Source: an uncultured Nitrososphaerota archaeon
GTDB taxonomy: Archaea; Thermoproteota; Nitrososphaeria; Nitrososphaerales; Gagatemarchaeaceae
Direction: 5' to 3'
Length of the DNA stretch: 64,000 bases
NCBI GenBank assembly: GCA_963703285.1
Contig: OY969807.1
Location: forward strand, 1,280,001 to 1,344,000
This document shows positions 13,993 to 18,438 of this stretch, in pieces (the first letter of the stretch is position 1; each line of letters begins with the position of its first letter). The notes under the pieces are model-generated. The model was not told the DNA's origin, did not search any database, and worked only from the letters and a program-made list of their open reading frames with translations. The translations under genes were made by a program, and so were the position numbers.

Positions 13993-14553
13993 TTATGGCG
14001 CGGCCTCGCCCCTCGCCAGGATGAGCGTCATCAGCGACTTCTCGTCGACCTCCGCCCTCGTCCTCCAGCCGATGCGAAGGAGCCCCTTCTCGTCCTGGTC
14101 CAGGTAGCCCCGCTTGATGAACCGCTCCAGCGAGTAGTCGACCCTCCAGCGAGGGAACTTCTCCCTGAGGAAGGTCTCCAGCTCCTTGCGCCCGACACGC
14201 CCCTGCTTCGAGTTCACCGTGGCGATGGAGGAGGCCAGGACGGCCAGGTCGTCGATGCGGAAGCCCGCGCTCTCCGCCTCGCTGACGGTCGGGCTCTCCC
14301 TGAACCTCAGGAGGAACCTCGTGGAGTCGTCGGTCCCCTCGATGCCCGGGACCTCGTGGACCTCCAGTCCGAGCGTCTTCAGGTCGCCCGAGAGAACCTC
14401 CAGGATCGTCTTGTAGTCCTTGCCCAGGTACCTCTTCATCTCCCAGCCCTTGACGCCTGGGTTCCTGCCCCTCTGGAGTATCAGGACCTGCAGGGCCTTC
14501 CTCATCTTCCTCTCGAGGAGCGCCCTCTCGTCGTCGCCTGTCGTCGTGCTCAT
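13993..14553 (-). CDS. KITE-like (ScpB/Nse1/Nse3-like) tandem winged-helix protein
   Basis: Last gene of the SMC operon; C-terminal RGYL...LRIGWRTRAEV resembles KITE WH-B. Confidence 0.6.
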   Translation of the reverse strand: MSTTTGDDERALLERKMRKALQVLILQRGRNPGVKGWEMKRYLGKDYKTILEVLSGDLKTLGLEVHEVPGIEGTDDSTRFLLRFRESPTVSEAESAGFRIDDLAVLASSIATVNSKQGRVGRKELETFLREKFPRWRVDYSLERFIKRGYLDQDEKGLLRIGWRTRAEVDEKSLMTLILARGEAAP

Positions 14554-15281
14554 GCTAGCTCAATCGCCACCGATTTCGTCTCCGACCCGGGTGGCCCGTC
14601 CCGCGGCGAGAGAAATATCTCCTCGGTCAGCGGGTCGACCCTGACGTTCGCGCGGCCCTCGGTCACCACGAAGGCGGTCAGGTACGCGCGGACCGCGGTC
14701 TCCTCGAATGTCGGACCCCCGACGAACTTCCTGTAGTCGACCTCCCCATCTCCGGCGGCCTGGACGAGCTCGTCGCGGATCGACCTGAGGCGCGTCTCGA
14801 ACTCCTCCTTGGAGAAGATGTTGAGTGACTGCAGCTCCTCGAAGTTCATCTGCCCGGGGGCGACGGCGAAATTGCCGAACTGCTCCTTGAAGCGCTCCGA
14901 CATCGGCACCAGCTCGCGCCAGTAGATGAAGGCCCTCTCCAGCCCCCGCGCGGTGAGCTGGTCGACCTGGGCGACCGGGTGCCAGCACTTGACGAAGCTG
15001 TCGGCGAGGTCCTCTCGGGTCAGGAGCCGGATCTTGAGCTCGAGCAGCATAGGGTCGATGTACAAGGAACTGGCGCGATGCTTAAGCCACGATTCTTGTA
15101 ACTTCGCCAGCGCCACGAGCTGGCCGAGGGCCTCTGAGTCCCCGAGCATTACATCGATTAAAGTCCAGTCCGGCATGTACTTCTTCAGTACCAAGAGTTT
15201 TTCCCTGATATTCACTTCAAATGGACTGGTACTCGAAGACTGTACAGCTTCGCAGAGCGCTATAATTCTAGTATAGTCTTC
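14550..15281 (-). CDS. Putative kleisin (ScpA-like) partner of the SMC protein; start uncertain
   Basis: Frame open upstream of GTG 15215 (EDYTRIIALCEAV...PFEV); C-terminal wHTH-like RAYLTAFVVTEG; operon position. Confidence 0.6.
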   Translation of the reverse strand, partial: EDYTRIIALCEAVQSSSTSPFEVNIREKLLVLKKYMPDWTLIDVMLGDSEALGQLVALAKLQESWLKHRASSLYIDPMLLELKIRLLTREDLADSFVKCWHPVAQVDQLTARGLERAFIYWRELVPMSERFKEQFGNFAVAPGQMNFEELQSLNIFSKEEFETRLRSIRDELVQAAGDGEVDYRKFVGGPTFEETAVRAYLTAFVVTEGRANVRVDPLTEEIFLSPRDGPPGSETKSVAIELA

Positions 15282-16300
15282 GCGCGCGCTCTCACTCTTC
15301 TCCTCATTCTTGTGGGTTGGTTCAACTTCTCCATAAGTCGGCGTACCTGATCAATCCTCTGGGGGGTCCGGAATGGGCCGACCTCCCTAATAACCTTAGC
15401 AACACCCTCCAGGTTAGTTGTCTTTGCGATGTACATTCCTCGCTTGTCCCTGTATACTTTGCATCTTACTCCCATTTCCGCTAGACTCCTGACGTACACA
15501 TCGAGAGGTTCCCTGTGCTTTTGAACAACTGCAAGCTCGGTACCTCTCCTGCCATTTAGGCCGGTGGGATCAAGGCTACCTTCGGTATCAATCCATGCTC
15601 TGATTTCTTCCTTTGACATCTTGCTTGCATTCATTTCGAGCAGTCTGTGCTTGAACTCTGTTCGCCCCGCTTGCTTCTTCTGCCCTTCTTCTTGGATCGC
15701 AGGAATGTTTCTTATGCGATGGTCCGGTTCGAGCGCGCTCTGTATGTAAAATGCTTCGATGACGTTTCCATTAGCTTTCATCTTGAAAACGGGCGCAGTA
15801 TCCGGGAATCTAAGACTGAATGTTTCGTTTATCTTTCCAATCCTGATGATTCCGCTGACCTTCGAATCATAAACCCTGCCCTCAAGGTACACCCTGCTTC
15901 CGTCAATCATAAGTTTGGGGTCCCTGACGACAATCGAATTGTTGTCAACTATCATTTTGAGCGTCCTCTCTGAAAGGGACAGTCGAATATTCTCAAAGTT
16001 GGATGGTTTCAGCTTATTGAAGTCACGGGCGAAGTCGGGTGTATCATACTTCTCCATTGAGTACACATTGAACAGCTCTCTGGGAGCAGGATGGATACGT
16101 GCGATATTGATGTGGGGAGCGACATGCGCCCAACTCGTGTACAGGTGAAACTCTTTCTCCGGTTCCGACGCTCTGGACACTCGTGCTTCAACGATATCAC
16201 TCTTTCCAAACTTGGTAGCGAATTCTGGGGGTATGTGAAGGAAGTTAGATGCTCCCGCCTTGGCCTCCTTCCTTTGAAACAGTAAGCTCCCTTCTAACAC
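15260..16300 (-). CDS. Free-standing LAGLIDADG-like endonuclease with an unknown N-terminal domain
   Basis: EIRAWIDTEGSL motif followed by V.Q...PL, L..MGV...; markedly lower GC than flanks. Confidence 0.7.
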   Translation of the reverse strand: MLEGSLLFQRKEAKAGASNFLHIPPEFATKFGKSDIVEARVSRASEPEKEFHLYTSWAHVAPHINIARIHPAPRELFNVYSMEKYDTPDFARDFNKLKPSNFENIRLSLSERTLKMIVDNNSIVVRDPKLMIDGSRVYLEGRVYDSKVSGIIRIGKINETFSLRFPDTAPVFKMKANGNVIEAFYIQSALEPDHRIRNIPAIQEEGQKKQAGRTEFKHRLLEMNASKMSKEEIRAWIDTEGSLDPTGLNGRRGTELAVVQKHREPLDVYVRSLAEMGVRCKVYRDKRGMYIAKTTNLEGVAKVIREVGPFRTPQRIDQVRRLMEKLNQPTRMRRRVRARAKTILEL

Positions 16301-16424
16301 ACAGTTATTCTTTGAAGAACTATAAGAGCACCCACGGCAAGAGGAACAAGCCTAGCCGTAAGAAACAAGCAGCACATTTTGGCGCAGCTCGATCAGGCGG
16401 AGGATGTCCTCCAGCTTCCTGTCC

Positions 16425-18438
16425 TCACTTTCCGGCGAACTCTTTCACCTCGGAGGCTCCGTGCACCGACTGGACGGTGATGACGTGGGCCGACCTGTCT
16501 ATCACGCTGATTATGGAGGGCGTAATCACGATGTTCTGGGAGTTGGGGTTGCCCTTCGACCCCGCGAGGATCATCTTGAATATCGCCTCCCTGTTCCTCG
16601 GGTCCATGTGGATGTCGAACTCGTCCATGGCCCGAAGCGGCGATATTATCCGGGACTGGAGCGAGAGGATGAAGGCGACGAGGGCCACGGACCTCTCTCC
16701 GCCGGACTGCGTGTAGGGGTCGAGCACCGAGGGAGGCGCTCCCTTGTACCCGACGAGGAGCTGGAACCCCGTCTCCTCTATGCCGTCTCCCTCCTCGAGC
16801 CTGATGGCGCCGCTCGCACCCACCGTCGACAGGACGTGCTGGTAGACCGGGGTTATCTCGTCTATGAGGTTCTGTATGGCGGTCCTCCAAGCCTTTTTCC
16901 TCTCCTCGAGCTCCTTCAGCAACAGCCCCTTGTTCTCTTGGAGCAGGGTCAGCTTGTCCTTCAGCCCCTCGATGTTGCCGACGTAGTCCTTGTAGATGCG
17001 CTCGGCGTCCTCCGGGAGATCCTGCAGTTTCTGTATCTGGGCGGAGACGAGCTTCAGCTCCTCTGAGACCTCGTAGGGCTGCCTCTCGGTGACTATCCGC
17101 TCGCCCGCCTTATCGAGCTCTGGCCCAAGGGTCTGGAGCTCTCCCAGGACCTCCTTCTCGGAGCGCTCCAGCTCCCTGATCTCGGACTCGGTGACCTTGA
17201 TGCGGTAGGCGAGCACCTCGAACCTCACCCGCTGCCCGATGTACTCCTCGGTGGTCTTCCTAATCAGCTCCTCGACGCCGCCCAGCTCGGCCTGGAGGGA
17301 TGCCACCTCCCTGTCTAGCTCGGTCTTCTTTCTCAGCCGCGTCCTCCGACGCGCCCCTCGACCTCTCGGACGAGAACTCCAGGAACTCTTGGACGCGCTT
17401 CAGCCTCTTCGCGTCCATGACGTCGGAGAGGCCGTCAATCTCCTTCTCGATGGTCTCGAGCTCTGTCCTGAGCTTCTCCATCGCGCCCCGCGCGCCCTCG
17501 TCGCCCGCCCTCTCCTTCTCGGCTCGGACAAGCGCGCCGTAGAGCTTCCCCAGCTCGACCTGCCGGTCCAGCAGGGCCTTGTGCAGCGACTCGGACTCCG
17601 TCCCAGACTTGGACTGCTGGTCTGTCATCTCGTCGAGAGTCTCCCTCTTCATGGCTAGCCTCTCTCGGACCGACTGGAGCGACCTGGAGAGCTTCCCCTC
17701 CTGGGCCCAGAGGAGCTCGCTGGCCAGCAGTCCCCTGTGCTCGAGAAGCTTCCTCTTCTCCAGGTAGCGGTCGTAGATCTGCTTCCAGTACTCTATGGTC
17801 TGGTTGGCGTTCTCGATCAGCTGGATGAGCGAGCCCTCCTCGCTGATGAGGCCCTTGAGGTCGCCCTCCGACTGGATTATCCGCTCCCTGTACTCGCGGA
17901 AGCCGACGGCCTCCTCGACCATCGTGAGCCTCTGCTGGGTGGAGATGGCCCCGAGCTCCTCGATCATCCCCTGGTGCATTATAATCAGGAGGTTGTCTGG
18001 GTTTATCCCGAACTCACTGAGCAGCTTCACGACCTCGCTCTTGTCTATCTCCTTGTAGTCGGCCTCGTACCAGTAGGAGCCGTCCTTCCTCAGGTAGCGG
18101 GAGAGCATGAAGGTGTCGGACTTGGAGTAGGGGATGGGCCTCGAACCTGCCCTCTCCCTGTTGTCGAATATCAGGGAGACGCGGGCGATTTCCTTCCCCC
18201 TCCTTATCAGGTCGCTGAGCTTCCTGGACCTCTCAGTATAGGCCTGGCCGAAAGCCACGGAGATGGCGAGGAGGACGGACGACTTGCCGGCGCCGTTGGG
18301 TCCCACTATGAGGTTCAGCCCTCCCGTCAGTGGGATCCTCGCGTACTCGTAGCTCATGAAGTTCTCAAGAATTATCTCCTTGATCGGGGGAGAGAACGTC
18401 TTCTCCGGGGCCGATAACTCTCGAAGGGGCCTCGACAA
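16425..18438 (-). CDS. Smc5/6-related (coalescin/ClsN-like) short SMC ATPase, split by a frameshift at ~17340
   Basis: LENFMSY and GPNGAGKSS in the N-terminal ORF; QSGGERS and AMDEFDIHMD in the C-terminal ORF; coiled coil between. Confidence 0.85.

Follow-up and report, generated by a model that had tools for sequence, protein, structure and literature searches.

Archaeal homing endonucleases are known from rRNA introns and from inteins. Free-standing endonuclease genes that settle in protein-coding genes have so far been described mainly in fungal mitochondria and phages. As set out in PMC3630166, mobile endonuclease open reading frames (mORFs) of fungal mitochondria make hybrid genes, with Glomus atp6, atp9, cox2 and nad3, and the Allomyces atp6 cited there, as examples. 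Accounts of T4-like phages describe free-standing homing endonucleases, intron-less homing and co-conversion of the flanks (PMC2988022, PMC2790892), and mobE is described as splitting nrdA in an Aeromonas phage (PMC3045599). For archaea, PMC6125680 describes group I introns with LAGLIDADG genes in rRNA, and a recent preprint describes a second, SMC5/6-related operon of SMC, kleisin and kite genes in many TACK and Asgard lineages (10.1101/2024.01.07.573240). Here we analyze a 64,000-nucleotide stretch of the chromosome of an uncultured Nitrososphaerota archaeon (contig OY969807.1; hereafter the window, all positions being counted within it). In it, a LAGLIDADG-type gene lies inside the 5' end of the kleisin-like gene of what looks like a second SMC operon of this kind. 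We read it, with moderate confidence, as a free-standing homing-endonuclease cassette inserted between kleisin codons 18 and 19 so that the open reading frame (ORF) is split.

The closest known match is with the fungal mORFs. As in the cases presented in PMC3630166, a free-standing LAGLIDADG ORF (LAGLIDADG or GIY-YIG there) lies inside a gene end, the neighboring gene segment is foreign, with mostly synonymous differences and another phylogenetic affinity, and the native gene end remains nearby as a relic. Unlike those cases, which concern 3' ends in organelles, the element here occupies the 5' end of a chromosomal archaeal gene. In addition, the window copy has no duplicated upstream codons and splits the ORF, whereas the copies in two related genomes, G018 and G020, form a true mirror image of the fungal arrangement. 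As the phage sources above describe them, the phage endonucleases share with our element the lack of intron or intein protection and the co-conversion of flanks, and mobE likewise fragments a coding sequence. However, they are HNH or GIY-YIG enzymes in phage genomes, whereas the present protein is LAGLIDADG-type and sits in a cellular chromosome; moreover, phage nrdA is divided into two large parts that reassemble, whereas only an 18-codon stub is split off here. The LAGLIDADG enzymes of archaeal rRNA introns and inteins (I-DmoI, I-Vdi141I) share the fold, the motif and an archaeal host, but our element differs from them in having no intron or intein, an extra 200-residue beta domain and a protein-coding target. 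Titles and abstract openings on free-standing homing endonucleases, archaea and LAGLIDADG describe no such element in an archaeal chromosome, and no paper combining LAGLIDADG and kleisin was found in the literature searched. New features are the archaeal chromosome as host, the endonuclease's domain architecture, and the 5' end and a second-SMC kleisin as targets; some copies also bring along a TATA-like sequence and a start codon. The small family behaves as fungal gene-end-replacing ORFs mirrored to the 5' end, with at least one copy that splits its target.

Foreign DNA interrupts the kleisin-like gene after codon 18

The host genome is a single contig of 2.25 Mb from a GC-rich member of the Nitrososphaerota, and the locus is a minus-strand operon of three genes encoding a short SMC-like ATPase, the kleisin-like protein and a protein of 186 amino acids (aa). 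The distance from the SMC end to the kleisin start was measured at 75 loci of other species and lies between -12 and +5 nucleotides (nt) at 70 of them; the 1.13-kb gap between the two genes in the window is therefore an insertion. Directly overlapping the SMC stop is a stub of the kleisin gene that reads SPESEDRKLEDILRLIEL and then continues into the non-kleisin sequence RQNVLLVSYG, ending at a TAG (16354-16352). The kleisin starts with ...KKLED[IV]LRLIELC[KR].VQSSS.NPFEV in 18 of 20 related loci; the family-level relative L020 has KKLEEILRVIELC at this motif, and a frameshift splits it in L004. Compared with the left half-site in clade members, the stub shows 1-2 differences in 12 nt, and the SMC side upstream of the junction is host-like up to its last block. 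The initial annotation, made from the letters of the window, had described this stub as host-GC sequence and anticipated that it would match the kleisin start of element-free relatives; the alignment bears this out, the stub matching their N-terminus. Also as noted there, GC content falls abruptly after the stub, from 0.58-0.70 in the flanks to 0.44-0.505 across 15200-16399, and the low-GC foreign DNA extends over about 1.33 kb, from 16384 to about 15050. The individual features are listed in Table 1.

The two ends of the inserted sequence are compact. The 84-nt leader that precedes the endonuclease gene shows no significant RNA structure (z = -1.43 against shuffles), and a spacer of five bases, CGCTC, separates the endonuclease stop from the Cys19 codon of the kleisin. 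As the spacer holds a second Leu18 codon (CTC), with the stub ending in GAGCTG and the right side resuming in GCGCTC/TGC, GCT and one further base flank the insert on both sides. LAGLIDADG enzymes leave 4-nt 3' overhangs, and the repeat could represent such an overhang after filling in, with microhomology equally possible. The insert has only short, chance-level terminal repeats. An 11-nt similarity between 15037-15047 and 16386-16396, which sits at the far end of the foreign tract, was considered as a second site and is read instead as conserved sequence coding for LLEL.

The insertion and its frames are real. Short-read contigs came from four runs of one study (X1-X4); those of X2, X3 and X4 read through the 16385 junction and the TAG exactly as in the window, and those of X1 and X2 cover 15085-15808, including the overlap of endonuclease and kleisin frames, without gaps. 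A genuine indel error at 17334, 950 bp away, and the frameshifts seen in the kleisin gene of related genomes might suggest that an assembly chimera or long-read indels created the insertion and its frame breaks. Given these spanning contigs and the recurrence of the architecture in other assemblies, we regard this as very improbable.

Table 1. Features of the interrupted operon in the window
Feature	Position	Strand	Basis or remark
SMC-like ATPase gene	16425..18438	-	~671 aa; SMC_N and TIGR02169 matches
Host stub, kleisin codons 1-18 (TCG..CTG), overlapping the SMC-like stop	16385..16438	-	N-terminus of relatives
Insert leader, low-GC, 84 nt, from break to endonuclease start	16301..16384	-	GC content, sequence
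Endonuclease-like gene, 346 aa, GTG start, TAG stop	15260..16300	-	ORF, fold, family alignment
Spacer CGCTC, 5 bases, endonuclease stop to Cys19 codon	15255..15259	-	Sequence reading
Foreign recoded kleisin tract, codon 19 to ~87	15050..15254	-	Identity, GC at third codon positions, tree, pN/pS
Kleisin-like gene, host-type remainder	14550..15049	-	Tree and identity to host clade
Presumed KITE subunit, 186 aa, intact	13993..14553	-	Role from gene order only

The inserted gene encodes a conserved LAGLIDADG-type protein

The initial annotation had called the low-GC ORF of the insert a LAGLIDADG ORF, and fold and family comparisons support a LAGLIDADG-like domain at its C-terminus. An AlphaFold2 (AF2) model with a mean local confidence (pLDDT) of 80.9 consists of an all-beta domain (residues 8-200), a disordered linker, a core (230-307) and a basic helical tail. 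The core has the alpha-beta-beta-alpha-beta-beta-alpha topology (H230-240, E241-246, E252-260, H264-274, E281-284, E290-294, H297-307), and Foldseek matched the model to I-PanMI (7e-4), I-CreI, I-TnaI and I-DmoI with probability 1.00 and E-values of 7e-4 to 1e-2, and further to I-Vdi141I and the non-nuclease WhiA. Within the motif EIRAWIDTEG, residues E232, I233, R234, W236, I237, D238, T239, E240 and G241 are invariant in 13 of 13 aligned members, and all aligned members retain the acidic residue of the LAGLIDADG motif at the end of the first helix. Eleven of the 13 match the Pfam family LAGLIDADG_3 (PF14528) at E <= 0.01, the best at 1.6e-6. Of the 69 columns that are invariant in the other members, 63 are unchanged in the window copy; a comparison of the G018 and G020 genes gives 0.089 nonsynonymous differences per site (pN) against 0.485 synonymous ones (pS), and the GC content of the gene is 0.48-0.50 in each of the four copies measured, whereas the DNA flanking the inserts of the window and of G018 has about 0.58-0.70. 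The gene is intact and under purifying selection, and its product is a predicted nuclease, judging from sequence and model.

The family is small: a search of 5.8 billion clusters yielded only 12 relatives, counted as clusters at 90% identity; leaving aside the entry of the window protein itself, their identity is 42-68%, with P0002 (68%) the closest. A profile search against 1.84 billion representatives recovered 172 proteins at E <= 0.001, 17 of them at 1e-30. Many weaker matches cover only positions 25-225 or only 245-364, so the beta and LAGLIDADG domains also occur separately. The N-terminal domain matched no Pfam, NCBIfam, PHROGs or PADLOC family and gave no usable match in the Atlas; it may be a DNA-targeting module common to different proteins. 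The protein is a candidate for a new meganuclease scaffold that has this additional beta domain and, by prediction, a target of about 24 bp.

Several other proteins carry one or both of these domains. Beta-domain proteins of 360-800 aa are numerous in the profile search. The genome of the window itself encodes, at L022 (ORF 1477-2607; G000:C1:1590641-1591201), a 376-aa protein with an N-terminal beta domain like that of the endonuclease (26% over 182 residues) and a differing C-terminal part with no family match. Its gene lies directly 3' of a Pfam RNase_H_2 gene, with a DNA_pol_A_exo1 (3'-5' exonuclease domain) match below cut-off. In P0100-P0103 and L023:1-711, acidic low-complexity N-terminal extensions of 275-780 residues are fused to the endonuclease. 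A stand-alone LAGLIDADG-domain relative of 126 aa (L043:5980-6360; 43% over query residues 228-344) lies 26 nt upstream of a 405-aa ORF that by eye reads as an acyl-CoA dehydrogenase, in surroundings of slightly lower GC content (0.54-0.58, compared with about 0.63), and may be a further free-standing copy located at the start of a gene.

The adjoining kleisin segment is foreign and recoded

Downstream of the insertion point, the kleisin frame begins with DNA that is not of the host type. Nucleotide identity between the window and its host clade is 0.59-0.72 over 15254-15045 and 0.91 from 15044 on, whereas clade members share 0.77-0.95 among themselves over 15254-15045. GC content at third codon positions, in blocks of 20 codons from codon 19, rises from 0.40 through 0.70, 0.75 and 0.85 to 0.95-1.0, and the G018 and G020 kleisins show a similar dip. 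The AT-rich codon usage, which the initial annotation had followed to about 15060, ends where identity shifts, and the end of the foreign tract lies between 15074 and 15045.

Separate trees for the two parts of the gene, proposed at the outset, give differing signals. The remainder of the gene places the window inside the L002-L007 clade (support 93/87). In the tree of the first 195 nt, the window branch measures 0.70 against a median of 0.073, and forcing it into the L002-L007 clade costs 8.9 log-likelihood units (approximately unbiased (AU) test, p = 0.039, a marginal value). Within the tract, pS is 0.82-0.87 (saturated) and pN 0.18-0.21, and of 32 columns that show no variation among 18 other sequences, 3 are changed. 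As the synonymous sites are saturated and the protein is conserved, the tract comes from a diverged kleisin under purifying selection. These comparisons agree with the earlier view of an adjoining kleisin segment that is foreign and recoded at the presumed target site. Since the SMC side is host-like to its last block, the foreign tract is one-sided, and 15050-15254 is most simply explained as a one-sided co-conversion tract.

The same site is used repeatedly in related lineages

The distribution of the element is patchy. A full-length endonuclease occurs in 3 of 23 genomes of the genus, adjoining the kleisin in all of them, and in an order-wide sample 10 of 201 genomes give a match at E <= 0.001, with full-length copies restricted to the same three genomes. 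Including metagenomic contigs, the endonuclease is found at a kleisin 5' end in five places: the window, G018, G020, the metagenome contig L041 and a relic, L072.

In G018 (L036:1934-6640), 4.7 kb of low-GC DNA lie between the SMC-like and kleisin genes and contain two winged-helix genes (HTH_45, and HTH_27 below cut-off), three ORFs with no family match and the endonuclease. The stub after the SMC gene ends in ..DKKLED, and a second remnant of the kleisin 5' end, GACAAGAAGCTCGA, immediately precedes the endonuclease gene; the two relics suggest nested insertions at the site. In G020, the stub MPAQAQEDRERDKKLEDILRLIELC, followed by HD and a stop, is on the SMC contig, and a separate contig holds the endonuclease and then the kleisin. 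L041 has the SMC gene, the stub MPVAAQEDRERDKKLEDILRLIELC followed by a stop, and the endonuclease 126 nt further on. At the nucleotide level the stubs end in ..GAGCTG (window), ..GAGCTCTGCC (G020) and ..GAGCTCTGC (L041), and that of G018 earlier, in ..KLED; three of the four ends therefore fall within about six bases, at GAGCT(G/C)(TGC). Between L041 and G020, 596 of 655 SMC residues are identical (91%), against 172 of 344 in the endonuclease (50%). It is hard to reconcile this contrast with anything but horizontal transfer to a single fixed site.

Alleles linked to the endonuclease are also changed at that site. Over 24 nt, the window differs from empty alleles at 8-9 positions and G018 and G020 at 5-10, the latter all synonymous in the kleisin frame, whereas the largest difference within the host clade is 1 of 24. 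The empty alleles L012 and L018 share the GAATTATGC variant of linked alleles, which fits past gain and loss of the element without proving it. In the empty allele L004/L055 (genome G009), codons 17-19 have changed from GAGCTCTGC to GAGCCTGTGC, one base longer and with the frame broken. This is the only frame-breaking change in the 24-nt site, and it coincides with the presumed cut. Either a repair scar or an assembly error could account for it, and we give it little weight because several related assemblies of metagenome-assembled genomes (MAGs) show frameshifts in the kleisin gene. Together, the filled, recoded, decayed and possibly scarred alleles form a natural series for a homing cycle in uncultured soil archaea.

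The presence of cargo in G018 bears on whether the protein moved the insert at all. The insertion might instead be a remnant of a larger element or the result of illegitimate recombination, with the protein domesticated for DNA binding or as an accessory to the SMC-like system, and no active nuclease. The 4.7-kb insert of G018, with its winged-helix genes and genes with no family match, would suit such a history, as would the long acidic N-terminal extensions of some family members; strong conservation is compatible with any function, and the LAGLIDADG fold also occurs in the non-nuclease WhiA. Yet the window insert consists of the endonuclease alone, and Pfam and PHROGs searches found no recombinase or other mobility gene in the inserts or in the L072 context. 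The acidic motif residue is invariant, and the gene is confined to 3 of 23 genus genomes. Breaks fall within a few bases of each other in three lineages, and linked alleles are recoded exactly at the site, by synonymous changes alone only in G018 and G020. We therefore consider a domesticated factor unlikely and retain the homing-endonuclease cassette as the preferred reading.

Replacement 5' ends in sister elements and a split frame in the window

G018 and G020 carry true replacement 5' ends. In both, the endonuclease is followed by TTATAATA, which is TATA-like, and then by an ATG that opens a complete N-terminus, MATREGT(P/R)N..DKKLEDILRLIELC, written in AT-rich codons and recoded synonymously. 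The distance from endonuclease stop to ATG in G018 is 79 nt and includes AAGCTTATAATA, which, like its G020 counterpart AAGGTTATAATA, reads as TATA-like. The host stubs coexist with the new N-terminus, the stub being complete to LIELC only in G020. In L041, ATG GCA CTA follows 27 nt past the endonuclease stop, where the contig ends.

The window copy is built differently. The initial annotation held that the element supplies a replacement 5' end, a claim that applies to G018 and G020 and does not extend to the window, where the foreign kleisin homology starts at codon 18/19, exactly at the end of the stub. Codons 1-17 are not duplicated, so that this feature of gene-end-replacing mORFs, present in G018 and G020, is missing. 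Reading ..NEEKSESAREDYTRIIAL, the kleisin frame stays open for 32 codons upstream of Cys19, back to 15350; as previously stated, and confirmed by our frame scan, it contains no ATG, GTG or TTG before 15215. The endonuclease TAG (15262-15260) lies five bases before the Cys19 codon, and the tail of the endonuclease in its own frame, RVRARAKTILEL, is homologous to the family tail RVIERSKALLDL, which in G018 and G020 is not followed by kleisin sequence.

The proposed replacement N-terminus of the window had relied on an alignment of EDILRLIEL with EDYTRIIAL, which has 4 identities in 12 positions encoded by or overlapping the endonuclease ORF. This alignment does not rise above chance: with the amino acids of the tail fixed and the codons resampled, at least 4 of 12 kleisin matches arise with P = 0.04-0.09, and with the family consensus tail or the P0002 tail with P = 0.05-0.14. 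We accordingly read EDYTRIIAL as a by-product of the conserved endonuclease tail translated out of frame; and since the upstream stretch is that tail in another frame, the insertion splits the kleisin ORF after codon 18.

The competing interpretation is that the frame upstream of Cys19 (..SESAREDYTRIIAL) is a translated, diverged replacement N-terminus that overlaps the 3' end of the endonuclease gene and is expressed from a non-canonical start, by reinitiation at an ATA overlapping the TAG, or through a -1/+2 shift. The open frame itself speaks for it, as do the E, D, R, I and L residues in register with the host motif and the sister elements that do bring new 5' ends. Relatives moreover tolerate ATT or even TCG at the normal start, and the kleisin frame of the L072 relic reads ..EITRLIAL before the junction, in the same register. 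However, the T-R-x-I-A common to the window and L072 follows from CTAGA...TAGC in the endonuclease frame. Eight of the 12 residues before Cys19 never vary in relatives, and the window frame changes 4 of these 8, against 3 of 32 in the foreign tract. No canonical start codon precedes the segment, and no slippery heptamer was seen by eye. To fuse the endonuclease and kleisin frames, the run at 15281-15289 would have to be shorter by one CG unit; this run, flagged early on for a check against reads, has no length variant in the X1 and X2 contigs, which drop rare variants. With homologous family tails that have no kleisin sequence after them, and a resemblance obtainable from the endonuclease tail by itself, a translated replacement N-terminus in the window is in our judgment improbable.

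The L072 relic shows the window-type junction a second time. One MAG contains a normal locus (L068) and, on another contig, L072 (L072:3193-4484), in which the last ~60 residues of an endonuclease remain (..GVAKVIREVGPFRTPQRREQV..ARKLLDS and a stop). The TAG of the relic is followed by two bases and then TTG CTC CAT.., leading into the kleisin, so that the endonuclease stop abuts kleisin codon 18 as in the window. With this second occurrence, the window-type junction emerges as an architecture that recurs within one branch of the family. From L072:3535 the kleisin DNA is 96.5% identical to L068 over 802 nt, breaking off in the downstream gene; L072 is either a strain variant or a duplicated fragment, and because its kleisin is nearly the host's own, it is uninformative on long-term function. 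Two neighboring minus-strand ORFs of L072 were considered as integrase-like and dropped, as they have no Pfam or PHROGs match.

Expression of the interrupted kleisin

The element is intron-less and intein-less by all signals searched for, as the initial annotation had surmised. An intein is excluded by the in-frame TAG at 16354-16352, which the read contigs confirm, and by the change of frame between endonuclease and kleisin. Intein splicing blocks have an N-terminal Cys or Ser and a C-terminal His-Asn; the ends here are RQNV and ..ILEL followed by a stop. An Rfam search gave no match at E up to 10, so there is no group I or II intron. A scan for bulge-helix-bulge (BHB) motifs reached a best score of 8, while 300 random segment pairs averaged 9.7, with their 95th percentile at 13; co-folding of the junction regions produced no BHB-like pairing, and the endonuclease-kleisin junction, with its 12-nt inverted repeat, folds no better than shuffles (z = 0.03).

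These results also weigh on the idea that the stretch 16384-15255 (1130 nt) is spliced from the mRNA as an intervening sequence, be it a BHB intron or another spliced element with an endonuclease gene of its own. Its removal would restore ..EDRKLEDILRLIEL/CEAVQSSS.. in frame and collinear with all relatives; the stub is intact and host-like, the downstream tract resembles exon co-conversion, and L072 has the same junction. However, besides the null searches and the BHB score below the random mean, the ORF takes up all of the insert except 84 nt and 5 nt, and the archaeal group I introns described in PMC6125680 are all in rRNA genes. G018, G020 and L041 need no splicing, since they have their own ATG. 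We rate splicing as decidedly unlikely, below the readings of a translated N-terminus or a domesticated factor, and return to the free-standing cassette, around which the Rfam, BHB and frame analyses find no intron or intein.

The normal kleisin start codon (16436-16438 in the window) lies about 9 nt downstream of GGAGGTGA and overlaps the SMC end. Fifteen element-free loci have TTG (7), ATG (2), ATT (3) or TCG (3; L004, L005 and L010) at codon 1. The TCG of the window, described at the outset as one change from TTG, stands where relatives have their start; as three element-free loci also have TCG, it is not a change that followed the insertion. The sole canonical in-frame start of the downstream ORF is the GTG at 15215, inside the foreign tract, and initiation there would remove residues 1-32, including the first helix (2-21) of a low-confidence model. 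Many database gene calls for the kleisin family are 221-226 aa long and start downstream of the conserved N-terminus. The sequencing runs listed as containing the locus include none of RNA.

Because no start codon, intron signal or frameshift error was found, the kleisin is probably interrupted, and from its reading frames the protein is most likely not made in normal form, being either lost or truncated from GTG 15215. Window-type alleles might nevertheless be alive and yield a working kleisin by a route not yet known in Archaea, to which we assign a small chance. One such route would be the removal from mRNA of an endonuclease-bearing intervening sequence with neither a BHB nor a ribozyme signature; another would be the assembly of a 28-residue stub peptide and an N-terminally truncated kleisin on the SMC neck. 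In general kleisin architecture, as described in 10.1101/2024.01.07.573240, the kleisin N-terminus binds the SMC neck. The locus also offers a way of asking whether these archaea can dispense with their second SMC operon.

A proposed homing mechanism and the points against it

The observations that speak for homing are the patchy presence at one site, the phylogeny discordant with that of the host, the recoded target and the one-sided co-conversion. From these we infer the following sequence of events. The cassette consists of the 84-nt leader and the gene for the 346-aa single-domain LAGLIDADG-type protein with its extra N-terminal beta domain. The protein would recognize a site of about 20 bp at kleisin codons 15-22 (CTGATCGAGCTC/TGCAAGTCGGTC) and cut empty alleles, the break being repaired from an endonuclease-carrying donor. 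The downstream end would invade the homologous kleisin of the donor, and synthesis would copy the endonuclease gene, with a crossover back to host DNA at 15045-15074 that leaves about 205 bp of donor kleisin; changed at 8-9 of 24 site positions, this segment should resist cutting. The upstream junction would form at the break itself, so that the host's 18 codons persist as a stub. The donor may have been an allelic chromosome or another mobile element, the G018 cargo and the L072 context hinting at the latter.

Several points weigh against this account. The window protein scores 18.4 bits against PF14528, below the Pfam gathering cut-off of 22.5, and breakpoints are the only basis for the cleavage activity and the target site. 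The AU test of the tract is marginal and involves a long branch, no donor lineage of the tract was found among 87 database kleisins (best 76%), and relatives of the endonuclease and kleisin were not found in viral contigs. The run that best holds the allele may be the source sample of the window and hence not independent support. As for loss of the kleisin, its remainder, the KITE gene and the corrected SMC gene are all intact, and the recurring junction of L072 together with the past purifying selection on the tract does not fit comfortably with a gene that is simply dead. Codon 1 also lacks a canonical start in three element-free relatives, and kleisin translation may start in an unusual way in any case.

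The SMC-like operon and neighboring genes

The SMC-like gene appears in the window as two ORFs, 17260-18438 (392 aa) and 16425-17306 (293 aa). Base 17334 is missing from the X1 and X4 contigs, which identifies the split as an assembly error, and dropping it yields a single frame of 671 aa that is collinear with relatives. Further indel errors may occur elsewhere in the host genome. The kleisin-like protein has no match in Pfam or NCBIfam, and its structure model is too poor (pLDDT 50.5) to suggest more than the N-terminal helix (2-21) and a C-terminal winged helix. A profile of 12 orthologues searched against PDB sequences gave a weak, non-significant similarity (E = 1) of this winged helix to EID3, an Nse4-type kleisin paralogue. 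The 186-aa product has no Pfam, NCBIfam, PADLOC or PDB sequence match, and comparison of the operon with defense-system libraries returned generic SMC-like similarity and nothing more specific. We take the operon as a second SMC/kleisin/kite operon of the kind described in the preprint; elsewhere in the same genome lies a second open frame of about 1200 aa with SMC similarity.

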